Shown: positions 7,440 to 42,406 of the stretch, in pieces
How the letters are laid out: each line of letters begins with the position of its first letter
Numbering within the stretch: the first letter of the stretch is position 1
Assembly (NCBI GenBank): GCA_016207445.1
Contig: JACQPS010000270.1
Coordinates: forward strand, 1 to 44,006
DNA: 44,006 nucleotides
Origin: Gemmatimonadota bacterium
GTDB lineage: Bacteria > Gemmatimonadota > Gemmatimonadetes > Longimicrobiales > RSA9
Reading direction: 5' to 3'
Made by a program: the position numbers and the translations under genes
Notes under the pieces: generated by a model
What the model was told of the DNA's origin: nothing
What the model saw: the letters and a program-made list of their open reading frames with translations, nothing else
Database searches by the model: none

Positions 7440-7449
7440 GGAGACTCTC

Positions 7450-9738: not shown

Positions 9739-9748
9739 GCCCGCAGGT

Positions 9749-10920: not shown

Positions 10921-10942
10921 ATTCTTGACGCTGGAGGCTGCC

Positions 10943-12966: not shown

Positions 12967-14228
12967 GGATCGTGCGCCTCTTCAGCGCGGCGCTGCTCGC
13001 CGCCGCCGCGCCGGCCGCGGCACAGACGGTGGCCATTACGAACGCGAAGCTCTACACCGGCACGGGGACCGTCATCGACGGCGGAACCGTCGTCTTCCGC
13101 GACGGCAGGATCACGGCCGTCGGCGCCGTGGGGGTCCCGGCCGGCGCCCGCGTGATCGACGCGGCCGGCAAGGTGGTCACGCCGGGCTTCCTGGATTCCT
13201 CCACGCAGGTGGGCGTGGTCGAGATCGGGCAGTACGAGGAGACACGCGACGAGGCCACCGCAGACGACCGGATCACGGCCGCGTTCAATGTGGCGGATGG
13301 GATCAACCCCCGCTCCACGCTCATCCCCGTCACGCGCGTGGAGGGGATCACGCGCGTGGTGGTGGCGCCGGGCTCGGGATCGTCGCTCATCGCGGGGCAG
13401 GGCGTACTGATGGACCTGAGCGGCGACCCGCTGTCCGTCACACTGCACCGGAACCCCGTCGCGATGTTCGCGGTGCTGGGCGAGACGGGCGCGGCCCTGG
13501 CGGGGGGCGCGCGCAGCGCGGCACTGCTGCGCCTGCGCGAGGCGCTGCAGGACGCCCGTGACTACCTGGCCAACCGCGAGGCGTTCGAGACCAACCGCCG
13601 CCGCGACTACGCCATCAGCCGGCTCGACCTCGAGGCGCTGGCGCCGCTCGTCCGGGGCGAGCTGCCCCTGGCCGTGCGCGCGGACCGCGCGTCCGACCTG
13701 CTCGCCGCCGCACGGTTCGCTCAGGAGTCCGGCGTCCGGATCGTACTGCTCGGCGCCGCCGAAGGCTGGATGGTGGCCGGCGAGCTCGCGCGCGCCGGCG
13801 TCGCCGTGGTGATCAATCCCATGCAGAACCTGCCCGGCTTCGACAACCTGGGCGCGACGCTGGAGAACGCGGCGCGGCTGCACGCCGCCGGCGTCACGGT
13901 CGCGTTCGCGACCTTCGACGCGCACAACTCGCGCAACCTGAAGCAGGCGGCGGGGAACGCGGTCGCGTACGGCATGCCATGGGAAGCGGCGCTGCGCGCC
14001 GTGACGGCGACGCCCGCCCGCATCTGGGGCGTGGCCGATCGCTTCGGCACGATCGAGGTGGGCAAGGACGCCGATCTCGTCGTCTGGTCGGGCGACCCCT
14101 TCGAGCTCTCGACCGCAGTCGAGCACGTTTTCATCCGCGGGCGTGAGATGCCGAAAGACAACCGCCAGCGGGAGCTCTTCCAGCGCTACCGTGCGCGCGA
14201 GGCGCTGCCGCAAGCGTACGACCATTAA
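12963..14228 (+). CDS. Amidohydrolase family paralogue lacking the HxH motif, translationally coupled to the upstream gene
   Basis: GTG 12963 overlaps TGA 12964-12966 (GTGA). Signal peptide. TPGFLDSSTQVG sits where HxH is expected. C-terminus GTIEVGKDADLVVWSGDPF. Confidence 0.8.
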   Translation: MRIVRLFSAALLAAAAPAAAQTVAITNAKLYTGTGTVIDGGTVVFRDGRITAVGAVGVPAGARVIDAAGKVVTPGFLDSSTQVGVVEIGQYEETRDEATADDRITAAFNVADGINPRSTLIPVTRVEGITRVVVAPGSGSSLIAGQGVLMDLSGDPLSVTLHRNPVAMFAVLGETGAALAGGARSAALLRLREALQDARDYLANREAFETNRRRDYAISRLDLEALAPLVRGELPLAVRADRASDLLAAARFAQESGVRIVLLGAAEGWMVAGELARAGVAVVINPMQNLPGFDNLGATLENAARLHAAGVTVAFATFDAHNSRNLKQAAGNAVAYGMPWEAALRAVTATPARIWGVADRFGTIEVGKDADLVVWSGDPFELSTAVEHVFIRGREMPKDNRQRELFQRYRAREALPQAYDH

Positions 14229-14232
14229 CGAC

Positions 14233-14310
14233 GGTCGACAGTCGACAGTTTACAGTTGACAGTGCCGCTACCGTCAGCCGGTTTACTGTGAACTGTAAAC
14301 TGCAAACTGC
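14233..14310. repeat. Family-1 heptad hairpin repeat after the amidohydrolase operon
   Basis: gtcgac-a-gtcgac-a-gtttac-a-gttgac-a-gtg ... tactgtgaactgtaaactgcaaactgc. Confidence 0.85.
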
Positions 14311-18423: not shown

Positions 18424-18515
18424 GTCGGCCGGCGGCGTTCCCGCCATTGCCCCGCCCGAGGCGCGGGCACTATCTTTTCAGCGGATCCCCCGGCCCACCC
18501 GCCGCAACGTCATTT

Positions 18516-18606
18516 TTCATCGCCAAGCGCGCAAAGACCGCGAAGAACAAAGTTGTAAGAATCTTGTCCATCCTTTCTCTGCGGTCCTTGCGTCCCTTGC
18601 GGTGAA
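18516..18606. repeat. Family-2 element (91 bp) upstream of the GGDEF-STAND gene
   Basis: ttcatcgccaagcgcgcaaagaccgcgaagaacaaag ... cctttctctgcggtccttgcgtcccttgcggtgaa. Confidence 0.75.
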
Positions 18607-18625
18607 TCGGCTAGCCGACTGATCC

Positions 18626-21600
18626 ATGGCCCCCGAGAGCACGACCCGCGATCTCGCGACCCCGACGTTCTCCAAGGCGGACCTCGCCGTCCGATTGGAG
18701 GAGGAGGTCGAGCGCGCGCTGCTGGAGGGCTACCCCCTCTCGTTCCTGATCGTCGACCTCGACCACTTCAAGAGCATCAACGACGCGTTCGGGCACGGGC
18801 GTGGGGACGAGGTGCTGCAGGAGTTCGTGCAGCGCGTCCACAAGACGATGCGCAGTACGGACCTGCTGTTTCGCTTCGGCGGCGACGAGTTCGTGCTGCT
18901 CGCGCCCAACACGTCGCTGGTGCAGGGCGGCATGCTCGGACGCCGCGTGCTGGAGGCCGTCCGTGCGACCCCGTTCGAGGGCACGCCGCCCGTCTCGCTG
19001 GCGCTCAGCATCGGCGTAGCGAGCCTGCCGGAGGACGCCCAGACGGGCGGTGAGCTGTTCCAGCGGGCGGACCGGCGCCTGTACGAAGCGAAGCGCCGCG
19101 GCCGCGGGCGTGTGGCCTGGGACGACCACGCCGCGCCCGAGCCACTGGCATTCGATCGCGGTGCCCGCATGATCGAGTGCGACGAGGACCTGGAGACGGT
19201 GCGTGCATTCCTCCAGGGTGTGCTGGAGAAAGGCAAAGGCGCACTCGACGTACGCGGTGCCCCCGGCTCCGGTCGCTCCCGCTTCCTGGTGGAGACGAAG
19301 AGCCTGGCGCGGCTGCTCGGATACGAGATCCTGGAGGTCTCGGGCGAGCCGACGCTGCGCGGGCGCGCGTTCGCCACGCTGAGCCGCGGCCGGACGGGCT
19401 TCGAGGGTGGGATCCCGCGCACAGCCGAGCAGCTGGTGACGGCGCTTCGCGACGAGCTCGAGCGCAAGGCGAAGCCGGGCGTGCTGATCGCGCTCGACGA
19501 CCTCCCCTTCTTCGACCAGGAAACCATCGAGCTCATGACGGCTGCGTTCGCGGCGCCCGAGCTGCCCGTGGTCGCCCTGGCCTACGTCACCGATGGCCAG
19601 ACGCATCCCGTGCTGCCCTCGTCCGAGGGCACATGTGATGCCACTATCGAGCTCACGGGGTTGAGCCCGGCCGGCGTGCGGACGTGGCTGCGCGAAGTGC
19701 TGCGCTGGGAGCCGCCCGAGTCATTCGTCGACTGGCTGCATGCCGAGACGGACGGCTTGCCCGCGCGCGTGCGCGATGGCCTGCTTTACCTCACGGAGAA
19801 GTCGCTGCTGCGCCGCGAGGACGAGGGTTGGATCTTCCCCGATCCACCGCTCACCACGCCGCTGCGCGAGCAGCTGCGTTTCCGCTCCACCGTGCCGCCG
19901 CACAACCTGCCGAAGGTCGAGTCCAGCATTCTGGGCCGGGAGCGGGAGATCAACGAAGCCAAGCGCCTCTTGCGCGCCGGCCGTCTCGTCTCGCTGCTCG
20001 GGCCCGGCGGGATGGGAAAAACCAGGCTCGCGCTCCAGGTCGCGTGGGAGCAGCTGCGGCTCTTCCCGGACGGCTGCTTCTTCGTCGGCCTGGCGGCGAT
20101 CGATTCGCCCGAGCTGCTCGTGCCCACTATCGCGGAAAGCATCCACTTCGAGTTCGCGGGCAGCGCGGACCCGCAGACGCAGCTCTTCGACCATCTGCGC
20201 GGCAAGCGCATGATGCTCGTGACGGACAACTTCGATCACCTGGTCCAGGGCGCGGAGCTGCTGCCCGAGCTGATGGCGTGCTCCTCCGACCTGCGGGTGC
20301 TCGTCACCTCGCGCGAGCGGCTCAATGTGCGGGGCGAGGCGATCCTCGAGTTGCAGGGGCTGTCGGCGGACGCGACGGAGGGAACGACGTCGGCTGCGGC
20401 GCAGCTCTTCCTGAACCGCGCGCGCGCGAGCGTCCCCGGCTACACGCCCTCGGCGGCGGACGGCGCGCAGATCCAGCGTATTTGCCGGCAGGTGGATGGT
20501 TTGCCGCTCGCGATCGAGATCGCGGCGGCGCTGGTGCGCGTGCTCACGTGCGTGGAGATCGCCGCGGAGATCGGCCGCAGCTTCGACGCACTGGTCGCCC
20601 GTCGGCGCGACATGCCGGAGCGACACCGCAGCCTGCGGGCGGTCTTCGACTATTCCTGGAACCTGCTCACGGCGCACGAGCAGACGGCGCTGCGCCGGGT
20701 CTCGGCGTTCCGCGGTGGCTTCCGCGCCGAGGCCGGCCGGCGCGTGGCCGGGCTGTCCGTGCCCGCACTCGCGGCGCTACTCGACAAGTCGTTGTTGCGC
20801 CGCGGCGCCTCGGGCCGCTACGAGCTGCACGGCGTCATCCGCCAGTACGCGGCCGAACGGTTGGGGGCGGACGCCGCCGAGCGCGAGATGGTGGAGCGGC
20901 TCCATTGCGAGTATTTCGCCGACTTCCTCCAGGGCCGCGCGGACCGGCTGCGAGGCCGCGGCCAGCAGCAGGCCCTGGAGGAGATCGGCGCCGAGATCGA
21001 CGATGTGCGAGCCGGCTGGCAGTGGGCGGTCGAGCACGGGGAGGAGCAGCTGATCGAGCGGCTCCTGCCCGCGCTGCACCTGTTCTACGAGCGCCGCGCC
21101 TGGTACCGGGAGGGAGAAGAGTTGCTCGGCTGGGCAGCACGCAAGCTGGGCCGACAGTCCCGGCTCGCGGCGCGCGTGCTCGCGCGGCAAGCGCACTTCT
21201 GCCTGCGGCTGGCACAGTTCACCAAAGCGCGGCGGCTCACCAAGGCCAGCCTGCGCATCCTGCGCGAGTTCGGTCACGATACCGACACGGCATTCGCGCT
21301 CTGGCTGCTCGGCGGCATCGCGCTCAAGACGGGGCAGTACGAGCGCGCGGGCAAGCTCTACCTGCGCTCGGAGCAAATCTACCGCCAGAGCCATTCGCCC
21401 CTCGATCTGGCCGATTGCCTGAACGATCGCGGCTCGGTGGCCATGGCGCAGGGACAGTACGAGCTCGCCGAGCAGCTGTTCCGGCGCAGCCTGCGCATCC
21501 GCCGGCTGGTGGGCAACCAGGCGGGCGTGGTCATGTGCCTCACCAATCTGGGTGTGCTGGCGGACGCACTCGGCAAGGCGGAGGAGGCACAGCGGCTGTT

Positions 21601-22177
21601 CGAGGAAAGCCTGCGCCGCTCGCGCGAGCTGGGCGATTTCCGCAACACGGCCATCGGCCTGGTCAACCTGGGCGCGTTCACCCTCAGCATGGCGAAGCGT
21701 GAGCGCTCGACGCGGCTGCTGCGCCAGGCGCGGGAGCTGCTGGAGCAGAGTCTGGCGATGTTCCGCGAGGTCGGCGACCGCACGGCCACGGTGATCGTGC
21801 TTCACAACCTGGGTGACCTGGCCCGGGAAGAAGGGCTATCGGAAGACGCGCTCGGCTACTATCGCGAGGCGACGACCCTGGCGGCCGAGACCAACGCGCT
21901 GCCGTTGCAGGCACGGGTCGCCGTGGGCTTGGGGCGGCTTCTGGTCGCGTTGGGTCGAACGGCCGAGGGACTCCGCCTGCTCGCCTGCGTCTGCGAGCAC
22001 CCGGCCACGGACCAGTCCGATCGCGAGGAGGCGAAGCAGGCGATCGCCGACCTGCGCGCGAAGCTGCCGGATGATCTCTTCAGCCTCGCGGAAGATGCCG
22101 GCCAGCGCGCCCGGCTCGAGGATCTGCTGCTGGAAACGCTCACGTCCACCCCCGTGTTCGCGAACGCGCCCGCCTGA
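18626..22177 (+). CDS. GGDEF diguanylate cyclase fused to two tandem STAND-type P-loop NTPase modules and a TPR array (1183 aa)
   Basis: GGDEF domain (DLDHFKSINDAFGHGRGD, RSTD-x5-GGDEF). Module 1: GAPGSGRS, VLIALDD, TDGLP (AAA_16-like). Module 2: GPGGMGKT, LVTDNFDHL, RVLVTSRE (NB-ARC/AfsR-like). About 350 aa of TPR-like repeats follow. Confidence 0.9.
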   Translation: MAPESTTRDLATPTFSKADLAVRLEEEVERALLEGYPLSFLIVDLDHFKSINDAFGHGRGDEVLQEFVQRVHKTMRSTDLLFRFGGDEFVLLAPNTSLVQGGMLGRRVLEAVRATPFEGTPPVSLALSIGVASLPEDAQTGGELFQRADRRLYEAKRRGRGRVAWDDHAAPEPLAFDRGARMIECDEDLETVRAFLQGVLEKGKGALDVRGAPGSGRSRFLVETKSLARLLGYEILEVSGEPTLRGRAFATLSRGRTGFEGGIPRTAEQLVTALRDELERKAKPGVLIALDDLPFFDQETIELMTAAFAAPELPVVALAYVTDGQTHPVLPSSEGTCDATIELTGLSPAGVRTWLREVLRWEPPESFVDWLHAETDGLPARVRDGLLYLTEKSLLRREDEGWIFPDPPLTTPLREQLRFRSTVPPHNLPKVESSILGREREINEAKRLLRAGRLVSLLGPGGMGKTRLALQVAWEQLRLFPDGCFFVGLAAIDSPELLVPTIAESIHFEFAGSADPQTQLFDHLRGKRMMLVTDNFDHLVQGAELLPELMACSSDLRVLVTSRERLNVRGEAILELQGLSADATEGTTSAAAQLFLNRARASVPGYTPSAADGAQIQRICRQVDGLPLAIEIAAALVRVLTCVEIAAEIGRSFDALVARRRDMPERHRSLRAVFDYSWNLLTAHEQTALRRVSAFRGGFRAEAGRRVAGLSVPALAALLDKSLLRRGASGRYELHGVIRQYAAERLGADAAEREMVERLHCEYFADFLQGRADRLRGRGQQQALEEIGAEIDDVRAGWQWAVEHGEEQLIERLLPALHLFYERRAWYREGEELLGWAARKLGRQSRLAARVLARQAHFCLRLAQFTKARRLTKASLRILREFGHDTDTAFALWLLGGIALKTGQYERAGKLYLRSEQIYRQSHSPLDLADCLNDRGSVAMAQGQYELAEQLFRRSLRIRRLVGNQAGVVMCLTNLGVLADALGKAEEAQRLFEESLRRSRELGDFRNTAIGLVNLGAFTLSMAKRERSTRLLRQARELLEQSLAMFREVGDRTATVIVLHNLGDLAREEGLSEDALGYYREATTLAAETNALPLQARVAVGLGRLLVALGRTAEGLRLLACVCEHPATDQSDREEAKQAIADLRAKLPDDLFSLAEDAGQRARLEDLLLETLTSTPVFANAPA
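18851..18892 (+). other. I-site (RSTD) and GGDEF active-site motif
   Basis: cgc agt acg gac = RSTD at 18851-18862. ggc ggc gac gag ttc = GGDEF at 18878-18892. Five residues lie between them, the canonical spacing. Confidence 0.85.
19256..19279 (+). other. Degenerate Walker A of NTPase module 1 (GAPGSGRS, Arg in place of Lys)
   Basis: ggt gcc ccc ggc tcc ggt cgc tcc read directly. Confidence 0.8.
20000..20023 (+). other. Canonical Walker A of NTPase module 2 (GPGGMGKT)
   Basis: ggg ccc ggc ggg atg gga aaa acc read directly. Confidence 0.85.
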
Positions 22178-22214
22178 TCGTTCCTTCCTTCCGATCCTCA
22201 CCTCCAGCAGTGAT

Positions 22215-22232
22215 TTCACCGCACAGACCGCC
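22215..22232. repeat. Orphan left end of a family-2 element (TTCACCGCACAGACCGCC), no partner arm
   Basis: gatttcaccgcacagaccgcc lies between the STAND stop and the next gene. No GCGGTGAA arm nearby in the spacer. Confidence 0.5.
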
Positions 22233-22307
22233 GGCCCGACTGTTGCACCCGTGGGGCGCGGGTGCCCGCGCAAGGGATCGGCCATCGCAGCGCGCGCAGG
22301 AGACAGC

Positions 22308-23459
22308 TTGGGTCGCAGCGGCTTCTTCGGGATCGCGACGTTCCTCTACCTGTGGCTGATGGTGGGCTTCGCGACCGGGACGGCCACGCTGCTCGGACCG
22401 GTGAAGTGGCTGACCAGCGCGCTGCGGAGCGCCGGCTGGAGCCAGCACGGGGAAGACCTGGCGGTGAACGGCCTCATCGTGCTGTACCTCGCCGTTTCGT
22501 TCGTGCTCGCCCGTCATCTCCTCCGACGCATGCGCGCAGCGAACCGGCGCCGTGTCCGCATCGGCATCCCCCTCGTCGTCACCGCCGCCGCCACGCTCTC
22601 CCTCTGGGGGTGGCTGCACCCCGCGTTGCTCGCGCGTGCCGCCGGCGGGCCCGGCGGCAGCCTCACGTTCCAGGGGGGAGCCGAGCTCGTCTTCGGGCCG
22701 TATCCGGACCGCGCTCGACTGGCCGAGCTGAAGCGCGCGGGCTTCACGGCCGTCATCTCGCTGCAGCACCCGGCGGTGCTCCCGTTCGAGCCGCGGGGGA
22801 TCACGGCGGAGCGGGAGGCCGCGCGGGAGGTCGGCATCGCGTTCATCCACGCGCCCATGCTGCCGTGGGTCAGCGAGAACGCGGGGTCGCTGCGGAAGAT
22901 CCTGGCGCTGGCGCGGGGGCGCGGACGCTACTACGTGCACTGCGGCCTCGGTCGCGACCGCGCCAACGTGGTCAAGCGCTGGCTGGAGCGAAACGGCGCC
23001 CGCGTGGCCGCGGCTCGGGATTTCACGGCCGCACGCAGCTTCGCGCGCCGCGTGGCCGAGGGCCGCTGGCTCATGGAGCGCGGCCGCATCGTGCGTCTCG
23101 AGCCAGACCTCTGGCTCGTTCCCTATCCGAACCGCCACGAGCTGTTCGGCAACATGCTCGCGGGGCAGCTCGCCTACGTGTTGCTCCTGCTCGACCCGAG
23201 CGACGCCGAACAGCGGGAATGGCTCGCCGAGGCGGAGCGCCTGTTCCGGGAGTTCGATGTGCCGTTCGGCCACCGGCCGGTGGCTGCGAGCGACCGTGCA
23301 GAGATCGGCAGGGCGGCCGCCGCGGCGCGGCGGCTCCCGCGGCCCGCCGCGGTGGTAGTCGCGCGTACGGCGCCGCGCGAGCCCGCGGACCTGGCCCGGG
23401 AGTTCGCGCGCGCCTATGGCGGGACCACGGGAGCCCACGGGCAGGAGGCGGCGCGATGA
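22308..23459 (+). CDS. 3-TM membrane protein with CX5R cysteine phosphatase (DSP/PTP-like) domain plus degenerate second phosphatase-like domain (paralogue 1)
   Basis: TTG 22308 preceded by AGGAG (start chosen by alignment to paralogue 2). Three hydrophobic helices; YYVHCGLGRDRANVVKRWL (HCX5R). The C-terminal half repeats the fold signature without the Cys. Confidence 0.8.
   Translation: MGRSGFFGIATFLYLWLMVGFATGTATLLGPVKWLTSALRSAGWSQHGEDLAVNGLIVLYLAVSFVLARHLLRRMRAANRRRVRIGIPLVVTAAATLSLWGWLHPALLARAAGGPGGSLTFQGGAELVFGPYPDRARLAELKRAGFTAVISLQHPAVLPFEPRGITAEREAAREVGIAFIHAPMLPWVSENAGSLRKILALARGRGRYYVHCGLGRDRANVVKRWLERNGARVAAARDFTAARSFARRVAEGRWLMERGRIVRLEPDLWLVPYPNRHELFGNMLAGQLAYVLLLLDPSDAEQREWLAEAERLFREFDVPFGHRPVAASDRAEIGRAAAAARRLPRPAAVVVARTAPREPADLAREFARAYGGTTGAHGQEAAR
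22938..22961 (+). other. HCX5R phosphatase P-loop of paralogue 1 (HCGLGRDR)
   Basis: cac tgc ggc ctc ggt cgc gac cgc read directly; Cys is codon 212. Confidence 0.8.
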
Positions 23460-24571
23460 AGCAGCGGCCGGTCGTCGTCGTCTTCCTGTTCCTCTACCTC
23501 TGGCTGGTCGTCGGGTTCTTCGCCGGAACCGTTACGCTGCTCGGTCCCGTCCGCTGGCTGACCGCGCTCGTGCGCGCGGCGAGCTGGACGCAAGGCCGCG
23601 AGAATGTCGCGGTCGCGGGCGTGATCGCGGCGTACCTGATCGCCTCGCTCGCGCTCGCACGCTGGCTGCTGCGTGTCGTGCTGCGCGCACAGCGCCGGGG
23701 CGTACGCTTCGGGATCCCCCTGGGCATCACGGTCGCGGCAGCAGTCTGTCTGTGGGCGTGGATGCAGCCGGGCACGCTGGCGCGGCCCGACGCCGGTCCC
23801 TCCCAGCGCGTCGCGCTGGCCAGCGGCGCCCAGTTCGTGTTCGGTCCCTATCCGGATGCGGAGCGGCTGCGGCGCCTGAAAGCAGACGGCTTTACGGCCG
23901 TCATCTCGCTGCTGCATCCGGCGGTGCTGCCGTTCGAGCCGAAGATCCTGGCGGAGGAGCGGCGGAACGCGCGCGCGGCGGGACTTGCCCTGATGCACGC
24001 CCCCATGCTGCCGTGGGTCGGATCGAACGAGCGCTCGCTCGCCGAGATCCGGCGCCTGGCCACGGGCGCGGGGCGCTATTACGTGCACTGCTATCTGGGG
24101 CGCGATCGCGCCAACGTGGTCAAGCGGGTGCTCGAGGACATGGGCAGGGCCGTGGCGGGTGCCGCCGACCTGCAGCAGCTGCGCGGATTCGAGGAGCGGA
24201 GCGAGCCGTTCGAGCGCGGTCCGCTCCAGCGTCTCGAGCGCGGCGTGTGGCTGATCCCGTATCCCAACCAGCACGAGCTGTTCGCGTACCTGCTGTTCGG
24301 GTCGGTTCGTCACGTCGTGCTGCTGCTCGACCCCGCGTTTCCGCAGCAAAGAGGATGGCTGTCCGAAGCCGAGCGCCTCTTCCGGGAATATGCCATGCCG
24401 TTCACACTCGAGCCGCTGCGCGGGGGCGATGCCGCGCGTGCGGCCGAGATCGCACGGCGCGTGCGAGTGCTGCCCCGACCGGTCGCGGTCGTCGCGGCCT
24501 TCACGGACGCGGCGAAGGATACGCGCGTGGCACGCGCCTTCCGGGCGGCGTACGGCGTCGGGACACAGTAA
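23456..24571 (+). CDS. 3-TM membrane protein with CX5R cysteine phosphatase domain plus degenerate second domain (paralogue 2)
   Basis: ATG 23456 overlaps TGA 23457-23459 (ATGA). About half of residues identical to paralogue 1 by eye. YYVHCYLGRDRANVVKRVL. Confidence 0.85.
   Translation: MKQRPVVVVFLFLYLWLVVGFFAGTVTLLGPVRWLTALVRAASWTQGRENVAVAGVIAAYLIASLALARWLLRVVLRAQRRGVRFGIPLGITVAAAVCLWAWMQPGTLARPDAGPSQRVALASGAQFVFGPYPDAERLRRLKADGFTAVISLLHPAVLPFEPKILAEERRNARAAGLALMHAPMLPWVGSNERSLAEIRRLATGAGRYYVHCYLGRDRANVVKRVLEDMGRAVAGAADLQQLRGFEERSEPFERGPLQRLERGVWLIPYPNQHELFAYLLFGSVRHVVLLLDPAFPQQRGWLSEAERLFREYAMPFTLEPLRGGDAARAAEIARRVRVLPRPVAVVAAFTDAAKDTRVARAFRAAYGVGTQ
24086..24109 (+). other. HCX5R phosphatase P-loop of paralogue 2 (HCYLGRDR)
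   Basis: cac tgc tat ctg ggg cgc gat cgc; Cys is again codon 212. Confidence 0.8.
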
Positions 24572-24727
24572 TTCACCGCAAAGGACGCAAAGACCGCAAA
24601 GGGGTTCGTCGCAGAACGCCGCAGGCCCAGCGAGATTCAAGACTTCAATTATTGAAGTTTCGATTTCTGGCAACGGACGGATCTCGCGTTGCCGGACCTC
24701 GGCGTCCTTTGCGATCTTTGCAGTGAA
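24572..24727. repeat. Family-2 element, full-length copy (156 bp) filling the gap between two convergent stop codons
   Basis: ttcaccgcaaaggacgcaaagaccgcaaagg ... cgtcctttgcgatctttgcagtgaa. The core holds the AT-rich palindrome acttcaat-t-attgaagt and the hairpin ggcaacg...cgttgcc. Confidence 0.8.
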
Positions 24728-24728
24728 A

Positions 24729-26198
24729 CTACTCGCCTGGCCCCGCCGGCTGCGGCCCGGGTGCGAACGCCTGCCAGCCGGTCGGCCCGATGAGCGGGCG
24801 CCCCTGCAGCTTGTAAAGGGCCGCCTCCAGGATCACGGCGGCGGTATTGATGTCCGTGACGCCGGTCGGGACGAGCGACTCCTCGTACAGCCCCGAGTGC
24901 CAGCCCTCGTCGCTGCGCGCCTTGCGCAGCTCTGTGAGCACGCGCTCGGTGTACTCGTTGGGGAAGAGCGCGTGCCAGCCGAAGGCGGCCTTGGTGCTGA
25001 TCCAGCGCGGGCGGTCGAAGTTCTTGCCCGGTGAGGCCGCGTCAATGACCCACGCCTTGCCGTTGCAGAAGACGCAGTAGTAGTAGAAGTAGTACGGCGG
25101 CACGCTGAGCGCGTCCTCGCTCACCATCGTGAGCTTCCCCGTCTGCCGGTACCTTGCCTCCTGCGCTGCGAGGACGTTGCGCGCCAGCTCGCGGACCTCG
25201 GGCGTCCAGCCCAGCTCGATGCCCATGAGGAAGAACGGCTCGCTGGTGAGGCGGTCCAGCTTGCGCCGGTCCCGGTAGAGCGGTACGCCCAGCAGCGTCA
25301 TCGGCTGCGCGTTGGCCATCAGGTCCAGCGCCTTCTCGGCGCGATGCCCCCAGACGGCGAAGCCGATCGCGGCGTACTGCTCGTAGCCGATGCGTCCTTC
25401 CAGGTAGCGCCAGCGTTTCCCCTTCTGACTCGCGCTCGGCTGCTCGCCGTGCAGGTAGCCGCCCCGGATGACGCGCCCGAAGTCGGTGCGGTTCACGATC
25501 GCCTGCACGTCCTGCGCGTACTGCGGCTGGTTCACGGCCACGATCTTCAACCACACGAGGAAGCGGCCGAGGTCGATGGCGGACCAGCCGTGCGCCAGCG
25601 GCCGTTCGGCCCGGGTCGGCAACACGCCGGTGCGCGTCGCGTAGTCCTTGTTGTACGTGATGCCGTCGACGAGCGGCGCTCGCTTCAGCGTTGCGAGCAG
25701 GCGGCGCATGCGACGGTCGTACTCGGCATCGCGCAGCAGGTCGAGCTCGTGGGCGGAGTAGAGGGCGGCGATCCCGCTGGCGATGTCCCAGGTGGTCGCG
25801 TAATCCCAGTGCGGCGTCGCGCTCATCAGCCCGGTCGCGGGCTGGTAGGTTCGCTCCACCAGCCGCCACGCGGTCCGCGCCGCGTCCAGGTAGAGGTTCA
25901 GGTCCGCACCGGCGTTCTCCGGCTCGATGCCGGGGCGCGCTCCGGCCGCCGGCGCGGTGCCGGCCGACGGGGGCTCGCTCGCGGGGCCGCCTGGCCGTGG
26001 CGCCTCCTGCGAGCAGATCGCGAGCAACAGACCTGCGCCCAGCGCCAGCACGGGGGCCGCCACGAGCGCCTGCCCACGGACGCGGCTCCCGATCCGGCCG
26101 TGCAGAGATGCGACGACGCCCGCCACGCGCCCCACGCCGCGGACCGTCTGCGTCGGCGCCTCTGCTCCGCCGTGCATGATTCCGGGCTTCCTTGTCAT
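24729..26198 (-). CDS. Secreted or N-terminally anchored Trp/Tyr-rich helical protein, possibly DUF3131-type (glycan hydrolase/binding-like)
   Basis: TM/lipobox-like LVAAPVLALGAGLLLAICS, Pro/Ala linker, then about 380 aa with TTWDIASGIAALY, GWSAIDLGRFLVWL, YYFYYYCVFCNGKAW. Family call is from memory only. Alternative start ATG 26177. Confidence 0.6.
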   Translation of the reverse strand: MTRKPGIMHGGAEAPTQTVRGVGRVAGVVASLHGRIGSRVRGQALVAAPVLALGAGLLLAICSQEAPRPGGPASEPPSAGTAPAAGARPGIEPENAGADLNLYLDAARTAWRLVERTYQPATGLMSATPHWDYATTWDIASGIAALYSAHELDLLRDAEYDRRMRRLLATLKRAPLVDGITYNKDYATRTGVLPTRAERPLAHGWSAIDLGRFLVWLKIVAVNQPQYAQDVQAIVNRTDFGRVIRGGYLHGEQPSASQKGKRWRYLEGRIGYEQYAAIGFAVWGHRAEKALDLMANAQPMTLLGVPLYRDRRKLDRLTSEPFFLMGIELGWTPEVRELARNVLAAQEARYRQTGKLTMVSEDALSVPPYYFYYYCVFCNGKAWVIDAASPGKNFDRPRWISTKAAFGWHALFPNEYTERVLTELRKARSDEGWHSGLYEESLVPTGVTDINTAAVILEAALYKLQGRPLIGPTGWQAFAPGPQPAGPGE

Positions 26199-26458
26199 CT
26201 CCGTTCAGTTCGCCGGCGTTCCGTGACCCGTAGCGGGCGGTCTTGCGCGAGCGCGACCAGGGCAAGCTTTGCGCCAGGCGCTCGGCGTGCGGGGTCATGA
26301 ATCCTGCTGGCGCACAGCGCTTACTCTGGCGGCCGAGTCCGTCGCGCCGCGCGGCACGAGAGCGGGGCAGGGCACGAATCTTCCGATTCGGATCGCGGGT
26401 CGGCGCGCCGAGCGCACACGAAGGCCCGTTCCTGGGCGGGAGGGGTGGTGGAGGAGAG

Positions 26459-28780
26459 ATGAGCGAGGCTTCCGTGGATTCCGGGGGCGGAGCCGCCATG
26501 CTCGAGCCAGTGTCGATCCCGCCCGCGGACGCCACGCCCCGGCTTCCCGAGTGGCAGGAACGCATCATTCGATTCGTCGCGGCGCTGGCGCTGGCGTTCG
26601 GCTGCTACTGGGTCACCTGGCGCTGGACGAGCACGCTCAATCTCTCCGCACTCTGGTTCTCGCTCCCGCTCGTGCTCGCGGAGACGTGGGTCGCCGTCCG
26701 CAGCTTCTTCACCACGTTCACCACCTGGAAGCTGCGGCGCCGCGAGCCCCGGCCCGCGCCGCCGGGTCTCTCGGTCGACGTCTTCATCACGACCTACGAC
26801 GAGCCGCTCGAGATCATTCGTCGCACGGCGGTCGCGGCGCGCCAGATCCGCTACCCGCACCGGACCTACCTCCTGGACGACGGCAAGCGCGAGGAAGTGC
26901 GGGCGCTGGCCGGGGAGCTGGGCGTGGACTACATCCGGCGTGCGGGCAACGAGCACGCGAAGGCCGGGAACCTGAATCACGCGCTCTCGGTCACACAGGG
27001 CGAATTCATCCTCCAGCTCGACGCCGACCACGTCCCGCTGCCGCACATCCTCGACCGGCTGCTCGGCTTCTTCGACGATGCTCGCACCGCCTTCGTACAG
27101 TCGCCGCAGGACTTCTACAACGTGGACTCGTTCACGCACGACGTGAACGAAAAGGCGCGCCGGATCTGGGAGGAGCAACGGCTGTTCTTCTCCATCATCC
27201 AGCCTGGAAAGGACCACTGGAACGCGGCCTTCTTCTGCGGGAGCTGCGGCGTGATCCGTCGCGCGGCGCTCGACCATATCGGCGGATTCTCGACGCTGAC
27301 CCTGACGGAGGACATGGAGACGTCGCTGGTGCTGCACGGCCGCGGCTGGCGCTCCGTCTTCTGGGGAGAGAGCCTCGCCTATGGTCTGGCGCCCGCCTCG
27401 GCCGCCGCCTACCACGTCCAGCGCCTGCGCTGGGGCCAGGGGGCGATGCAGATCCTGCGGAAGCTGAACCCGCTGCGCTACCCCGGGCTCACGCTGGCGC
27501 AGCGCATCTGCTACCTGGATTCGGTTTCCTCGTATCTCGACGGCTTTGCCAAGCTGGTGCTGTACCTGTCGCCCATCGTGTTCTTCTTCAGCGGGGTCCT
27601 GCCGATCCATACGACCGATCACGAGTTCCTGGTGCGGTTCATCCCGTTCCTGGCGCTGCAGCTGACCGCCCACACGCTGCTGTTCCGCGGCTCCGCCTTC
27701 CTGCGATTGGCCGAGCGCTACAACATGTCGAAGTTCTTCACGTACGTGGTGGCGATCAGCGGCTACTTCGCGAAGGGACGGCTGCGCTTCCACGTGACGC
27801 CGAAGGGGCCGGGCGACGTTCCGTTCAAGACCTATGCGCCGCAGCTCGTGCTGGTCGTGCTCACCGTGCTCGCGGTGAGCTGGGGCACGCTCGCGTCGAC
27901 GCTCGGGTGGATGAACTACCAGGTGCCGGGGTGGGGATCGCTCGCGTTCTGGTTCAACTTCGGCTGGGCGCTCTACCACTTCGCCTTCGCCGGCTACGTG
28001 TTGCAGCTCAGCCTGTACGTGAAGCAGCAGCGTGCGGACCAGCGGTTTCGCGACGAGTTCCCGGTCGAGGTGTCGCTCCTCGACCCGGGGGGTCGCGAAG
28101 CGGGTCGCTGCGTCGCGCTCACGAGCAATCTGCATCCCGGGGGCGTCGCGCTGCGGGCGATGGCGCCGGTGGAGCCCGGTACGCGCGTGCTGGTACGCTT
28201 GCCGCTGCTGCCCCGCACGGTGGCAGCGCACGGCGTGATCGTGCACCGCCAGGCGCGGCAGACGCGGCACGGGCCGGTGTACGCGCACGGAGTGCGATTC
28301 GAGGGGTTGTCCCTGGACGACCGCGATGCGATCGAGCTGCACTGCACGCAACACGCCGCGCCGGCGCGGCGGCTGCGCTACCGCGATGCCTCCGACCTGT
28401 TCAACGGCGCGGTCCGCTGGATCTACGATGCGCGCTCGGATCGTCGGCGCGTCGTACGCTTGCCCGTGCGCATCTCGCTCGAGGCGCCAGATGGGCCGGC
28501 CGCCCTGGGGCTCGGACTGCTCGAGGATGTGAGCCGGCGCGGCGCCCGGCTTCAGCTCGGCCACCCGCTGCCGCCGGGCGCCCGGATCGGCTACGAGATC
28601 CCCGGCTCCGAGATCGCCGGGGCCGGCGTGGTCGTCTTCACGCGCGCGCTGGAGACGCCGCTGGGCGTGCAGTTCACGGTGGGGGTGAAGCTCGACGTGG
28701 TCGCGGCCACCGGCCGTTCGTGGCGGCGCCTCGGCGCCGCCAGGCTGGTACGGAGAGTGCAATCACTGACACGGGCCTGA
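26459..28780 (+). CDS. BcsA-like processive GT2 glycan synthase with two C-terminal PilZ domains
   Basis: ATG 26459 after GGAGGAG. Motifs TTYDEP, HAKAGNLN, LDADH, QSPQDF, FFCGSCGVIRR, LTEDMETS, QRLRWGQG (27419-27433). Multiple TM helices. PilZ-1 RADQRFR...SNLHPGG; PilZ-2 DRRRVVRLPV...EDVSRRGARL. Confidence 0.9.
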   Translation: MSEASVDSGGGAAMLEPVSIPPADATPRLPEWQERIIRFVAALALAFGCYWVTWRWTSTLNLSALWFSLPLVLAETWVAVRSFFTTFTTWKLRRREPRPAPPGLSVDVFITTYDEPLEIIRRTAVAARQIRYPHRTYLLDDGKREEVRALAGELGVDYIRRAGNEHAKAGNLNHALSVTQGEFILQLDADHVPLPHILDRLLGFFDDARTAFVQSPQDFYNVDSFTHDVNEKARRIWEEQRLFFSIIQPGKDHWNAAFFCGSCGVIRRAALDHIGGFSTLTLTEDMETSLVLHGRGWRSVFWGESLAYGLAPASAAAYHVQRLRWGQGAMQILRKLNPLRYPGLTLAQRICYLDSVSSYLDGFAKLVLYLSPIVFFFSGVLPIHTTDHEFLVRFIPFLALQLTAHTLLFRGSAFLRLAERYNMSKFFTYVVAISGYFAKGRLRFHVTPKGPGDVPFKTYAPQLVLVVLTVLAVSWGTLASTLGWMNYQVPGWGSLAFWFNFGWALYHFAFAGYVLQLSLYVKQQRADQRFRDEFPVEVSLLDPGGREAGRCVALTSNLHPGGVALRAMAPVEPGTRVLVRLPLLPRTVAAHGVIVHRQARQTRHGPVYAHGVRFEGLSLDDRDAIELHCTQHAAPARRLRYRDASDLFNGAVRWIYDARSDRRRVVRLPVRISLEAPDGPAALGLGLLEDVSRRGARLQLGHPLPPGARIGYEIPGSEIAGAGVVVFTRALETPLGVQFTVGVKLDVVAATGRSWRRLGAARLVRRVQSLTRA
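28027..28330 (+). other. PilZ domain 1 (RxxxR present, DxSxxG degenerate: NLHPGG)
   Basis: QQRADQRFRDEFPVEV...ALTSNLHPGGVALRA...GVRFEGL. Confidence 0.6.
28432..28720 (+). other. PilZ domain 2 (canonical RxxxR and DxSxxG)
   Basis: RSDRRRVVRLPVRISL...LLEDVSRRGARLQL...GVQFTVG. Confidence 0.7.
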
Positions 28781-28816
28781 GAAGGTGCCCGCGGTCCGGC
28801 TATGGAGGCGAATGGC

Positions 28817-29581
28817 ATGAAACAGCTCACCTTTACAAGCAGGGCGGCCATCGGCGGGGCGCTGGCTCTGACCCTGGCCGCGCTGAATCCGCTGTCCGCG
28901 CAGGTGGTCACAGGGGTCGGCGTCGGCGAGGTGTCGGGCGACGACGTGTCCCTGATCCTGCTGGGCGGCGCCGTCCATCCGGGCGGTCTCGGGTGGAAGC
29001 CGGTGGCGAGCCTGACGGGCTACCGGGTCTCCTTCCCGGCCACTGCAGACGAGAACGCGGAGATCTGGGCGCTGACGCCGGCGGTCGGGCTGCGCTATCG
29101 CATGAGCACCGGGGCGGTCCAGGCGAAGGTCGGCTACACATTTCAGAGCGAGGACCGCGAGGAAGCGTTGGGGCGTGTCTTCGGCGGCGGGAACAGCGGC
29201 GTCGTGACCTCGGCCCAGGCCGACTACTGGGGCGACGGCCGCTGGGGCCTGCAGGCGATCGGCGCCCTCAACCTGGAATCGGAGTACCTGTGGAGCCGCG
29301 GCCGCGCCATGCGGCGCGTGTACGGCTGGGATACGGGCTCCGCGCTCGCCGGCCTCGACGCCACCTGGCAGGGTGACATCGACGGCAGCGACCTGAACCG
29401 CTATCGCGCGTTCCAGATCGGGCCCGTCGCGCAGTGGGTGATCAACCCACTCGGGCTGATCGTCATCGGCGGCGCCGGTATCAAAGACGACAACACGATC
29501 CGGGACGAGACCTGGTACGCGCGCCTCGAGCTCGTCTGGTCGTCATCGCTGCGGCGGCGGGAGACAGTGGCGCGGGATTAG
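28817..29581 (+). CDS. Putative outer-membrane beta-barrel protein
   Basis: ATG 28817 eight nt after GGAGG. Signal peptide ending LSAQ. Alternating hydrophobic/polar strands rich in G, Y, W (VGLRYRM, AKVGYTFQ, WGLQAIGALNL, ARLELVW). Confidence 0.6.
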   Translation: MKQLTFTSRAAIGGALALTLAALNPLSAQVVTGVGVGEVSGDDVSLILLGGAVHPGGLGWKPVASLTGYRVSFPATADENAEIWALTPAVGLRYRMSTGAVQAKVGYTFQSEDREEALGRVFGGGNSGVVTSAQADYWGDGRWGLQAIGALNLESEYLWSRGRAMRRVYGWDTGSALAGLDATWQGDIDGSDLNRYRAFQIGPVAQWVINPLGLIVIGGAGIKDDNTIRDETWYARLELVWSSSLRRRETVARD

Positions 29582-30020: not shown

Positions 30021-30189
30021 GGCTGCCTCCGGACGCGCACCGAGAATCCGCGCGCCCGCGGGAGCGGGCGCCGGAGGGTTTGGGGTGCAAGACTTACGCC
30101 GGTCGTCACGCAGGGACGCTGAGGCGCGGAGGAATCCCTCCGTGACTCCGCGTCTCTGAACAGCGATGCGCTCTTTGATGGGAGGCTGC

Positions 30190-31314
30190 ATGCGCTCTCG
30201 CGCTTTGGGACTCGTCGGACTCGTGCTCGTGGCGTGCGGGCCCTTCGGCCGCGGCCCGGACTCGGCCACGCCGCGGCCGATGGGCCCGCCGCGCGTCGTG
30301 CTCTTCATCGGCGACGGCGCCGGGCTCGCCTACTGGAGCGCGGCCCGCTTCCGCGACGAGCCGCTCGCGGTCGAGGAGTTCCGCGTGGTCGGGCTGGTGG
30401 ACACGCGCAGCGCGTCGCACAAGGTGACGGACAGCGCGGCCGGCGCGACGGTGTACGCCACTGGCGTACGCACGTACAACGGCGCGATCGGCGTGGGGCC
30501 GGATTCGCTGCCACGTCGCACGGTGCTCGAGCTGGCGGAGATGAGCGGCCTCGCGACCGGGCTGGTCGCGACGTCGAGCATCACGCACGCGACGCCCGCC
30601 TCGTTCACGGCGCACGTGTCCAGCCGTCAGGCGGAGCCGGAGATCGCACGGCAGATGGCCGGCGCGGAGATCGACGTCCTGCTGGGGGGCGGGCGCGGCT
30701 ACTTCGACGGCTCGCTGCGACCGGACTCGCAGGACCTGCTCACCGGGATGCGCCGCCGCTACAGCTACGTCGAGGATGCCGCCGCGCTGCGCACGCTGCG
30801 GGCCGATACGGTACGCGCGCTGCTCGGGCTGTTCGCGCCCAGGCACCTCCCGGCGGCCGCCGAGCGGCGGCCCACCCTCGCCGAAATGACCAGTGCGGCC
30901 CTGGCCGTGCTGGATCACGATCCCGAGGGGTTTTTCCTGATGGTCGAGGGCTCGCAGCCCGACTGGCGCGGCCACGAGAACAACACGCTCGAGTCGGTCA
31001 CGGCCGAGATGCTCGATCTCGATCGCGCGGTCCGCGCGGCGCTCGTGTACCGGGAAAAACACCCGGAGACCTTGATCGTCGTCGTCGCCGATCACGAGAC
31101 CGGCGGACTCGCGCTGGAAGAGGATTCGCCCGGCACGCTGCGCGCCGACTATACCACCGAAGGCCACACGGGCGAGATGGTGCCGCTCTTCGCCATCGGC
31201 CCCGGCGCGGAGCGCTTCGGCGGAATCCTGCCGAACACGCGCGTGGGCGAGCTCCTGCTCGAGGCCGCGCGGCGGCCCGGGCAGGTGGCACAGCTCACTT
31301 TAGAGCGGCAGTAG
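30190..31314 (+). CDS. Alkaline phosphatase family lipoprotein (paralogue 1)
   Basis: ATG 30190 after GGGAGG. Lipobox LVLVACG. FIGDGAG, VTDSAAGATVYATG (Ser nucleophile motif), VADHETGG. Confidence 0.88.
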   Translation: MRSRALGLVGLVLVACGPFGRGPDSATPRPMGPPRVVLFIGDGAGLAYWSAARFRDEPLAVEEFRVVGLVDTRSASHKVTDSAAGATVYATGVRTYNGAIGVGPDSLPRRTVLELAEMSGLATGLVATSSITHATPASFTAHVSSRQAEPEIARQMAGAEIDVLLGGGRGYFDGSLRPDSQDLLTGMRRRYSYVEDAAALRTLRADTVRALLGLFAPRHLPAAAERRPTLAEMTSAALAVLDHDPEGFFLMVEGSQPDWRGHENNTLESVTAEMLDLDRAVRAALVYREKHPETLIVVVADHETGGLALEEDSPGTLRADYTTEGHTGEMVPLFAIGPGAERFGGILPNTRVGELLLEAARRPGQVAQLTLERQ

Positions 31315-31401: not shown

Positions 31402-32541
31402 ATGCTGCGGCCCTATTGCCTCGTCCTGGTGCTGGGCTTCCTGACCGCGGCGTGTGCTCCCCTGCGCCGCGCGGAACCGCCCGCTGCCGCCGCGCCGGCC
31501 CGGGTGCTGCTCTTCATCGGCGATGGCGCCGGCGTGGGCACCTGGACCATCGCGCGGATCGCGGCCGAGAGTCTCGCGATCGAGAAATTCCCCGTCGTCG
31601 GACTGGTAGATACTCGCAATGCCTTCGGCAGGATCACGGACAGCGCGGCTGGGGCGACCGCTCTCGCAACCGGTGTCCGCACCTTCAACCGAGCCGCCGG
31701 CGTGGGGCCGGACTCTGTGCCGCGCCGCACGGTCCTGGAGCTCGCCGAAGAGCGCGGCCTCGCGACTGGATTGGTCACGAACTCGTATCTCACGGATGCG
31801 ACGCCGGCCGCGTTCGCCTCGCATGTGCCCAACCGATCCCTGCGCGCAGAGATCGCGGATCAGATCGCTGCGCAAGGCATTGATGTCTTGCTGGGTGGCG
31901 GACGCGGCTGGTTCGACGGCTCGCTCCGGCCGGACTCCCAGAACCGGCTGCCGGACCTGTGCACGCACTACGCGTGTCTCTGGAGCGCCGCGGAATTTCG
32001 GGGCTTGGATCTCGCCAGGACGCAGACCCTCCTCGGGCTCTTCGCTCGGTCGGAGATGTTCTACACGGAAGAACCGGTGCCGTCACTGCCGGAGATGACG
32101 GCGGCGGCACTTGCCGTGCTAGACGGGGATCCGGATGGCTTCTTCCTCATGGTGGAGACGGAATCGACCGACGAATGGACGCACGAGCGCAAGGCGCTCG
32201 ATCCGGTCAGGGCGGCCGCGCTCGAGCTGGATCGGGCCGTTGCCGTGGGGTTGCAGTATCAGGCCAGGCACGCGGAAACACTGATCGTCGTGGTGGGCGA
32301 TCACGAGACCGGCGGACTATCGCTGGACCAGGACACGGCCGGCGTGTGGTCCCTCGCCTATACCTCGGCGCCGCCCGCACCCAGCAACGTCGGGGGACAC
32401 ACTCCCATGCTGGTGCCGGTCTTCGCACGAGGGCCTGGTGCCGAGCGCTTCGGCGGGATGCTACCGAACACGCGCGTGGGCGAGCTCCTGCTCGAGGCCG
32501 TGCGGCGGCCCGGCCGGGTCGTGGCGCAGCTCGCGCAGTAG
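31402..32541 (+). CDS. Alkaline phosphatase family lipoprotein (paralogue 2)
   Basis: Lipobox FLTAACA. FIGDGAG, ITDSAAGATALATG, VGDHETGG. GAGGTG RBS. Confidence 0.88.
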   Translation: MLRPYCLVLVLGFLTAACAPLRRAEPPAAAAPARVLLFIGDGAGVGTWTIARIAAESLAIEKFPVVGLVDTRNAFGRITDSAAGATALATGVRTFNRAAGVGPDSVPRRTVLELAEERGLATGLVTNSYLTDATPAAFASHVPNRSLRAEIADQIAAQGIDVLLGGGRGWFDGSLRPDSQNRLPDLCTHYACLWSAAEFRGLDLARTQTLLGLFARSEMFYTEEPVPSLPEMTAAALAVLDGDPDGFFLMVETESTDEWTHERKALDPVRAAALELDRAVAVGLQYQARHAETLIVVVGDHETGGLSLDQDTAGVWSLAYTSAPPAPSNVGGHTPMLVPVFARGPGAERFGGMLPNTRVGELLLEAVRRPGRVVAQLAQ

Positions 32542-35109: not shown

Positions 35110-35112
35110 GAA

Positions 35113-42345: not shown

Positions 42346-42406
42346 GTCGTGCTCCCGCCGTGCACCCGCCTTCGCCCGCGCCCGCGCCCCCGCCCGCTGT
42401 TGCTGT

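Follow-up and report, generated by a model that had tools for sequence, protein, structure and literature searches.

A candidate module for synthase-dependent glucan secretion without BcsB and BcsC in Gemmatimonadota

We analysed a complete contig of 44,006 nucleotides (nt) from the metagenome-assembled genome of a Gemmatimonadota bacterium (assembly GCA_016207445.1, contig JACQPS010000270.1), referred to here in its whole length as the window, in which a preliminary description had proposed a self-contained six-gene locus that makes cyclic di-GMP (c-di-GMP), senses it and controls the secretion of a polysaccharide. Our results suggest, with a probability of about 60%, that the core of this locus (24.7-29.6 kb together with two PTP-like genes) is a Gemmatimonadota-type module for synthase-dependent β-glucan secretion without BcsB and BcsC. 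The core encodes a BcsA-like processive GT2 synthase with two PilZ domains, an exported DUF3131 protein, a small BcsS-like protein and two PTP-like membrane proteins. What is new here is a variant of synthase-dependent glucan secretion with unusual helper genes that recur across Gemmatimonadota. Synteny and BcsA-like motifs support the part of the preliminary description that concerned reading the signal and exporting a polymer, and extend it to a conserved module.

The window has a G+C content of about 70% and its raw lists of open reading frames (ORFs) are consequently crowded with spurious frames; genes were therefore taken from a frame plot of third-position G+C (GC3) and from a codon-usage gene caller with start trimming. 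Both approaches back the six genes, with boundaries that equal the earlier coordinates or differ from them by a few codons, and a motif search recovered the repeat that had been described at their flank. The sole ambiguous stretch, 22.2-24.6 kb, holds two genes in different frames.

The synthase gene (26459..28780, forward strand) encodes a protein of 773 amino acids (aa) with a GT2 domain and two PilZ domains. It matches the BcsA structures of Escherichia coli and Rhodobacter sphaeroides over aa 40-550 (E 5e-78 to 1e-70), and both PilZ domains (PilZ-1, ~nt 28025-28345; PilZ-2, ~nt 28439-28678; both forward) pass Pfam, the second reaching 31.3 bits when taken alone against a cut-off of 22.5. 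The catalytic and channel motifs (LLDDGKR, QLDADHV, TLTEDMETS, QRLRWGQG and AAFFCGSCG) are invariant in 13 homologues, as are F444, V446, T447 and K449 of the gating loop FHVTPK (FxVTxK) and the RxxxR arginines of both PilZ domains (R525/R529 in PilZ-1, R659/R663 in PilZ-2). PilZ-2 also carries a canonical DVSxxG motif (DVSRRG), whose G695 is invariant in the same homologues and whose S692 is conserved in at least 90%. These features are consistent with the earlier proposal of a BcsA-like synthase gated by two PilZ domains. A literature search found no work linking Gemmatimonadota, cellulose synthase and c-di-GMP.

The BcsS-like gene (28802..29581, forward strand; 259 aa, alternative start at 28817) starts 21 nt past the synthase stop. 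Its small β-rich product has a signal peptide ending in AQ, and its hydrophobicity alternates with a period of two in 20% of sliding windows, compared with 8% in shuffled sequence; it is predicted to form an outer-membrane barrel of about 12 strands. The family profile aligns with acidobacterial PF17036 proteins at an hhalign probability of 97% (E 8.6e-11), and 6 of 28 family members match PF17036 directly (best E 5.5e-8). It is also evident that the synthase and the BcsS-like protein are fused in frame in several relatives (P0010, P0011 and P0082, with the order GT2-PilZ-PilZ followed by the BcsS-like part). The P0010 fusion is found on 8 contigs, its C-terminal 252 aa match the BcsS-like family profile with E 8.9e-38, and the fused part retains an internal signal-peptide-like segment ending in AxA-Q; GT2-PilZ-PilZ::BcsS-like fusions lie at 7175-10162 of locus L092 and 6624-9611 of L093. 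P0082 has, in addition, an N-terminal extension of ~290 aa that resembles a degenerate ParA/MinD domain.

The preliminary description had stated that the canonical partners of such synthases are absent. This holds for BcsB, BcsC, BcsZ, HlyD and TolC, none of which was found by Pfam among 34 scanned ORFs of the window (six short ORFs of 76-257 aa lay outside the scan), but it does not hold entirely, since the β-rich protein appears to be a distant relative of BcsS (PF17036). The Pfam annotations precomputed for L001-L004, L085-L087 and L092-L093 likewise contain neither BcsB nor BcsC or another TPR outer-membrane porin.

The DUF3131 gene (24729..26198, reverse strand; PF11329, E 7.5e-97) is divergent from the synthase gene. 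Its true start is probably an internal GTG near 26078, which gives a leader ending in ...LLLAIC, and the product is probably a lipoprotein (LAIC); nearly all homologues carry a signal peptide or a lipobox, and many have a lipobox-like cysteine. A structural model of the 489 residues, with a core pLDDT >95, is an (α/α)6 barrel as in clan GH-S of the glycoside hydrolases (GH). The top 19 PDB matches in a Foldseek search are all β-1,2-glucan enzymes (E 1.5e-10 to 8e-6), belonging to GH144 (4qt9, 3eu8, 5gzk, 5z06, 8xul), GH192 (8xuj), GH194 (8xuk), GH162 (6imu) and GH189 (8wy1 and 8rf9, from the part of cyclic glucan synthase that carries out cyclisation), and the GH8 cellulases BcsZ and CMCax rank far lower. 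A phmmer search of the PDB with the protein gave no match, and the only PDB sequence match of the family profile is 8wy1 (E 0.002). In the literature DUF3131 turned up in four mentions only, all incidental, with no characterised member found. We also observed DUF3131 proteins of ~650 aa fused to ankyrin repeats (P0280, P0293, P0312, P0322, P0327 and P0355).

The two PTP-like genes are tandem paralogues whose products are 54-55% identical. PTPa (22308..23459, forward strand, 383 aa) has a TTG start behind an AGGAGA site, and the ATG of PTPb (23456..24571, forward strand, 371 aa) overlaps the stop codon of PTPa (ATGA). Each protein has three hydrophobic N-terminal segments (aa 4-27, 49-70 and 83-102 in PTPa) and a CX5R motif, HC(G/Y)LGRDR, which reads HCYLGRDR in PTPb; an alignment of 46 homologues shows no exception to the loop H211-C212-x-L214-G215-R216-D217-R218. 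The family is unnamed and about 200 proteins were detected, some of which carry the label "PTP superfamily (DUF442)" at JGI. No Pfam, NCBIfam or PDB sequence match was found for the two proteins apart from NCBIfam Blh (E 0.009). In an AlphaFold model (pLDDT 84), N-terminal helices are followed by a PTP/DUF442-fold domain, on which the HCx5R P-loop lies, and then by a second α/β domain. Fold matches in the PDB (Foldseek) include DUF442 phosphatases, plant PFA-DSP1, KAP, Tk-PTP, NMA1982, Pseudomonas aeruginosa TpbA and the glucan phosphatase LSF2, with a probability of 1.0 to 3gxg/3gxh, 7mol, 1fpz and 4r0t. Because the loop between the second and third transmembrane (TM) segments is strongly positive (family means of 4.9 Lys+Arg and 0.04 Asp+Glu), the catalytic domain is predicted to be periplasmic.

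The genomic positions of PTP-like genes tie them to the glucan genes. Three homologues were looked up, and each has GT2 and DUF3131 genes in its vicinity; two of the three are in Acidobacteriota (Vicinamibacterales), at loci where the GT2 protein has no PilZ domain and the PTP gene is directly followed by the BcsS-like gene. A PTP-like gene tightly adjoins a BcsS-like gene in at least 13 of 17 loci, and locus L021 has the same arrangement as the window, with two PTP genes and a convergent DUF3131 gene. The occurrence with PilZ-less synthases and the predicted periplasmic domain suggest that these proteins belong to the envelope machinery, and not to a cytoplasmic layer of c-di-GMP signalling; a third regulatory layer had earlier been considered possible.

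To assess conservation, we scanned GTDB with the synthase alignment, which gave 80 loci, all in Gemmatimonadota, and added contigs from exact protein look-ups; in the resulting survey set of 83 GT2-anchored Gemmatimonadota loci, genes were called and their products clustered. A clade of 21 loci in Gemmatimonadaceae (drawn from L003-L020, L022, L025, L067 and L080) differs in its surroundings, where DUF3131, BcsS-like and PTP genes are all lacking; the synthase gene is mostly followed at once by that of a ~1000-aa AAA_16-TPR-LuxR (MalT-like STAND) regulator, or is preceded by family f9. Among the other 62 loci (non-type-A), 23 are complete, with at least 5 kb on both flanks. All 23 have DUF3131, 18 have a BcsS-like gene and 7 a PTP-like gene, which puts the frequency of the last between roughly a quarter and a third; GH6 (15/23), GH26-like (6/23), DUF5009 (9/23) and PIG-L (10/23) genes are also found. 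In all, GH6 occurs at 22 related loci and the acyltransferase-like DUF5009 at 13 Gemmatimonadota loci. Searching the window by tblastn with GH6, GH26-like, DUF5009, PIG-L, f30, HD-GYP and STAND-LuxR proteins gave nothing significant. The six-gene set is therefore syntenic elsewhere only in part: synthase, DUF3131, BcsS-like and PTP-like genes occur together in many genomes, whereas the GGDEF-STAND gene is found at none of 87 related loci. The full set of GT2, DUF3131, BcsS-like and PTP-like genes occurs in both Gemmatimonadota and Acidobacteriota.

Downstream of the module the window encodes Peptidase_C26, S58, HAD, DsbA, DUF402 and FadJ-like proteins. The closest syntenic relative, L001, with a synthase 65% identical to that of the window, has them in this order too, which suggests that the synthase is a stable chromosomal resident. 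In L032 and L044 as well, gyrA and cysK are found close to the module.

A few further genes were noted at related loci. In seven Longimicrobium-type loci, an HD-GYP-like (HD_5) and receiver-like protein (f25; L023, L024, L033, L046, L061, L074) is encoded directly upstream of the synthase, so that a c-di-GMP-degrading enzyme, and not a cyclase, adjoins the PilZ synthase there. The acidobacterial module (L085, 7708-8457 and 9245-9964) also encodes a PAP2 lipid-phosphate phosphatase, and an unnamed membrane protein of ~240 aa (f30) recurs next to PTP or BcsS-like genes in L085, L001 (3448-4185), L021 and L053; both PAP2 and f30 are missing from the window.

The pairing of GT2 and DUF3131 reaches further. 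By tblastn, DUF3131 genes are present on plasmids of Salmonella, Pantoea and Paracoccus (Pseudomonadota), of Sulfitobacter and Vibrio, and of Nostoc, and the clusters in the two records inspected (L090, Salmonella CP053577.1; L091, Paracoccus NZ_CP040760.1) combine a BcsA-like GT2 protein of ~605 aa with three DUF3131 genes and OpgC. The Salmonella GT2 protein shares 28% identity with the synthase of the window (E 2e-61). The regulators in these clusters are of the partner-switching kind, namely STAS, anti-sigma kinase-like and PP2C-type (SpoIIE) phosphatase proteins, the phosphatase being fused to a response-regulator domain in Salmonella. The presence of GT2 with DUF3131 in Gemmatimonadota, Acidobacteriota and plasmids suggests that the pairing is old and crosses phyla, with a regulatory input that differs by lineage. 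GH2 or GH16 genes lie near the two plasmid clusters, which appear to be uncharacterised. A hypothetical protein of the Salmonella cluster, considered as a BcsS relative, does not match the family and was ruled out. A similar accessory block is present in Klebsiella pneumoniae (PMC12974863).

Taken as a glucan secretion module, the core could work as follows. By homology to BcsA, c-di-GMP would bind the PilZ region of the GT2 protein and free the FxVTxK gating loop, whereupon the synthase would polymerise UDP-glucose processively and extrude the product across the membrane by a channel of its own. The exported DUF3131 (α/α)6 enzyme may trim or remodel the glucan in the periplasm, the role of BcsZ in Bcs systems. 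The BcsS-like protein, whose gene here presumably shares a transcript with that of the synthase and which in relatives forms one polypeptide with it, would be the envelope partner of the synthase and would probably serve passage of the outer membrane. At the periplasmic face, the two 3-TM PTP-fold proteins may dephosphorylate the polymer or lipid-linked species, or serve as scaffolds.

Several observations weigh against this reading. BcsB is essential for BcsA activity in Proteobacteria, and it was not found here. The synthase fails to reach the equivalog cut-offs of TIGR03030 (CelA; 398 bits against 699.1) and NF008558 (312 bits against 992), and PilZ-1 has NLHPGG in place of DxSxxG, so that the canonical serine is missing. 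The BcsS-like protein of the window itself gives no match to PF17036 at E ≤ 0.1, and its barrel is predicted from a sequence pattern, as the periplasmic placement of the PTP domain is from the positive-inside rule. In the alignment of 46 PTP-like sequences, no conserved general-acid aspartate was identified at a WPD-like position, and DUF442 domains are linked to sulfur transfer as well, as the NCBIfam name Blh indicates. Related loci often carry GH6 and GH26-like genes, for which tblastn gave no significant match in the window. Finally, the fold neighbours of DUF3131 all act on β-1,2-glucan and not on cellulose.

The last point bears on the alternative that survives best, namely that the product is no secreted cellulose-like exopolysaccharide but a glucan with β-1,2 or other non-cellulosic linkages. 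It could be cyclic or stay in the periplasm, in the manner of osmoregulated periplasmic glucans (OPG), with DUF3131 acting as a β-1,2-glucanase or transglycosylase like the GH189 domain. We consider this fairly unlikely, and clearly less probable than the main reading. Clan GH-S, to which all the top structural neighbours belong, comprises the β-1,2-glucanases and transglycosylases of GH144, GH162, GH189 and GH192-194 (PMC12102758). The one PDB sequence match of the DUF3131 profile is to a cyclisation domain of cyclic glucan synthase. The Brucella melitensis gene BMEI1837, which we take to encode the cyclic glucan synthase of this species, points in the same direction. It is annotated as DUF3131-containing (PMC6382750). 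The plasmid clusters with three DUF3131 genes and OpgC, the block in K. pneumoniae and the acyltransferase-like DUF5009 genes at Gemmatimonadota loci are also in favour. Against this, the synthase is closest to BcsA and retains the FFCGS and channel motifs. To our knowledge GH6 holds only β-1,4-glucanases, and 21 of the 23 complete loci have a GH6 or GH26-like gene alongside the module. An outer-membrane BcsS-like partner and gating by c-di-GMP would, moreover, be typical of secreted matrix polymers. Nor does the fold fix the specificity, as no activity on β-1,2-glucan could be detected for the Group 4 protein, a member of this clan (PMC12102758). The similarity to BcsA and the GH6 neighbours at related loci point to β-1,4 linkages, whereas β-1,2 or OPG-like chemistry is what one would expect from the fold of DUF3131 and from the clusters with OpgC.

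A second alternative concerns the PTP-like proteins, which could be TpbA-type protein phosphatases, or sulfurtransferase-like or scaffold proteins, that regulate or anchor the machinery and leave the polymer untouched. The protein phosphatases KAP, Tk-PTP and TpbA among the fold matches, and the weak match to Blh, a sulfur transferase/dioxygenase, in its DUF442 domain, would agree with this, and so would the duplication of the gene in the window and in L021; the tight adjacency to BcsS-like genes suggests a structural partnership. Yet the CX5R loop, invariant across 46 sequences, argues for catalysis, the loci have no conserved kinase partner, and the fold neighbours also include the glucan phosphatase LSF2 (4kyq) and inositol-pyrophosphate phosphatases. 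On balance we regard this alternative as rather unlikely. A bolder conclusion seems to us equally doubtful: GT2, DUF3131, the BcsS-like barrel and the periplasmic PTP protein would together form a distinct exopolysaccharide or periplasmic-glucan system, whose glucan would be non-cellulosic and possibly phosphorylated or β-1,2-containing, with DUF3131 as a new family of glycoside hydrolases or transglycosylases and the PTP-like protein as the first bacterial envelope phosphatase for glucan or lipid that is dedicated to a synthase.

The remaining gene of the six (18626..22177, forward strand) encodes a protein of 1183 aa in which Pfam recognises a GGDEF domain, a degenerate AAA_16-like P-loop, an NB-ARC/STAND region and TPR repeats. 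The GGDEF domain (aa 9-161) scores 125.9 bits against a cut-off of 23.8 (E 1.6e-36; TIGR00254, E 6e-40), its GGDEF motif is intact, and the RxxD site (RSTD) stands 5 residues upstream, which is the canonical spacing (RSTDLLFRFGGDEF). The AAA_16-like region is weak and its Walker A lysine is replaced (GAPGSGRS); the following NB-ARC/NACHT-type NTPase reaches 27.2 bits against a cut-off of 23.5, with the Walker A motif GPGGMGKT, and is followed C-terminally by TPR_12 (E 6e-30), so that the P-loop and repeat sensor of a STAND NTPase are both present. No TM segment was found. These matches bear out the earlier view of a c-di-GMP synthase on a STAND scaffold, and the protein is probably an active diguanylate cyclase with an RxxD inhibition site (I-site). 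As a soluble cyclase it would be switched on when ligand sensing by the TPR repeats leads to STAND oligomerisation and brings the GGDEF domains together, it would be subject to product inhibition at the RxxD site, and it may feed the adjacent synthase.

Whether the cyclase belongs to the module was addressed through its relatives. In a HMMER search of 1.84 billion cluster representatives, about 116 of the 149 best matches examined align from within the first 45 residues on, with 31-46% identity and similar length, and all seven sampled relatives combine GGDEF, AAA_16, NB-ARC/AAA_22 and TPR. The layout is so common among cluster representatives that the cyclase appears to be an ordinary member of a large STAND-type family that is not tied to the module; as far as we could find, this family, although common, is unstudied. 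In a tblastn search with the GGDEF domain, nothing below E = 2 was found within 10 kb on either side of the synthase at the 87 related loci, and a metagenome scan for close cyclase relatives gave only two partial ones, of which the one checked (L089) had no GGDEF. The position of the cyclase here is lineage-specific and outside the conserved system. The pairing of cyclase and synthase could still be conserved among very near relatives, since the contig of L001, the closest syntenic one, is cut off upstream. A defence-system reading was dropped, as a PADLOC scan of the cyclase and both PTP proteins gave no more than a generic TPR match.

These results do not support the self-contained unit of signal producer and receptor in the preliminary description, in which the STAND cyclase supplies the adjacent PilZ synthase and the phosphatases tune the signalling as parts of one dedicated six-gene unit. 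Such a unit would be in keeping with adjacent genes on one strand, with a gap of 131 nt between the cyclase gene and PTPa in which no terminator-like site was found, and with the intact GGDEF motif and I-site. Local control of c-di-GMP may recur, as the HD-GYP-like and receiver proteins upstream of GT2 in seven loci suggest, and the fold of the periplasmic phosphatase TpbA, which is said to control a cyclase, is among the structural matches of the PTP-like proteins. All this is outweighed by the lack of a GGDEF gene near the synthase at the related loci, the poor yield of the metagenome scan and the generic nature of the cyclase family. Moreover, the cyclase has no TM segment while the PTP domain is predicted to be periplasmic, and PTP-like genes accompany PilZ-less synthases in Acidobacteriota. 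A dedicated six-gene unit is thus improbable, more so than the alternatives above, and a cyclase that adjoins a PilZ synthase is not in itself evidence of a dedicated signalling circuit.

The repeat that was thought to bound the block on its left is real but not specific to it. The motif GCAAAGRMCGCRAAG has 5 matches in the window compared with 0.03 expected. It forms an inverted pair at 18515..18607, where two arms of ~30 nt (TTCACCGCAAAG..GCAAAG type) enclose a spacer of ~30 nt, and another at 24571..24727 (24.6 kb), in the gap between the convergent PTPb and DUF3131 genes, with arms at 24571-24601 and 24697-24727 and an AT-rich core; the same motif occurs at a third intergenic site at 10.9 kb (10880-10925). 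As it lies at three intergenic sites including that at 10.9 kb, it does not delimit the block. For the same reason, and because the flanking genes match the syntenic L001, a mobile-element boundary was ruled out. Short tandem units of the ACAGTTGACAGT / TCGACTGTCGACTGT type, found in either orientation, make up another family of intergenic repeats (61-101, 972-998, 14223-14308, 35093-35246 and 39186-39212). The longest inverted repeat of the window, at 42262-42401, has arms of 65 nt that are 77% complementary and a loop of 10 nt.

Judging from gene positions, promoters for the divergent DUF3131 and synthase genes presumably lie in the intergenic region 26199..26458, in which no sigma-70 consensus was found. 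A promoter scan gave no promoter-like sites, and shuffled sequence yields terminator-like sites at least as often. The module is closely followed by a tandem pair of genes for paralogous alkaline phosphatases of the PhoA type (30166-31314 and 31402-32541), ~60% identical; they are missing from the otherwise syntenic L001, so the pair is probably a local insertion or duplication. A small soluble-type GT2 protein (338 aa; 9749-10765) is encoded 16 kb upstream of the synthase, and nothing evident connects it with the module.

Hardly any work exists on the matrix polymers of Gemmatimonadota and Acidobacteriota, although both phyla are abundant in soil. The module suggests how a BcsA-type synthase might work without BcsB and BcsC, by means of an envelope set of DUF3131, BcsS-like and PTP-fold proteins, and it provides functional hypotheses for three families that have no known function, namely DUF3131, BcsS and the unnamed PTP-like family.

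Compared with known systems, the cyclase protein resembles STAND NTPases such as MalT, AfsR and their relatives in its order of effector, P-loop NTPase and TPR sensor, but its effector is a GGDEF cyclase and its P-loop domain is doubled in tandem, with a degenerate first copy. The PTP-like proteins share a cysteine-based CX5R P-loop and a small PTP fold with TpbA, DUF442 and atypical dual-specificity phosphatases. TpbA is a periplasmic phosphatase of P. aeruginosa that is said to control a cyclase and is linked to the control of c-di-GMP and exopolysaccharide. In contrast to TpbA and DUF442 proteins, the PTP domain of the window has a 3-TM anchor and a second α/β domain, is detected by no Pfam or NCBIfam model, and is tied genomically to a glucan synthase and not to a cyclase. 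DUF3131 is like the GH-S enzymes in its predicted fold, with TM-scores of 0.53-0.60 when normalised to the 489-residue model and 0.39-0.68 when normalised to the single-domain targets (lowest E 1.5e-10), but it shows no significant sequence membership in GH144, GH162, GH189 or GH192-194; this kinship of fold without a sequence match suggests a separate, uncharacterised family of the clan (PMC12102758).

The closest comparison is with the BcsA-BcsB complex (PDB 4hg6, 7lby) and the Bcs systems to which it belongs. The synthase shares with BcsA the architecture of a processive GT2 with D,D,D,QxxRW, FFCGS and TED motifs, the FxVTxK gating loop and a C-terminal PilZ with RxxxR, and a predicted periplasmic glycoside hydrolase and a putative relative of the accessory protein BcsS are encoded alongside, as in Bcs systems. 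The window differs in having no BcsB, BcsC or BcsZ (GH8), in having two PilZ domains and not one, and in a synthase that falls below the CelA equivalog cut-off; its hydrolase is a DUF3131 protein with a clan GH-S fold, a PTP-fold membrane protein is added, and a small β protein of a size for ~12 strands stands in place of the 16-strand BcsC porin with its TPR domain. In-frame fusions of BcsA and BcsB (AcsAB) are known from Proteobacteria and Acidobacteriales (PMC9693552). The GT2::BcsS-like fusions resemble them in joining the synthase to an extracytoplasmic partner, but here the partner is unrelated to BcsB and retains a signal-peptide-like segment with its AxA-Q site.

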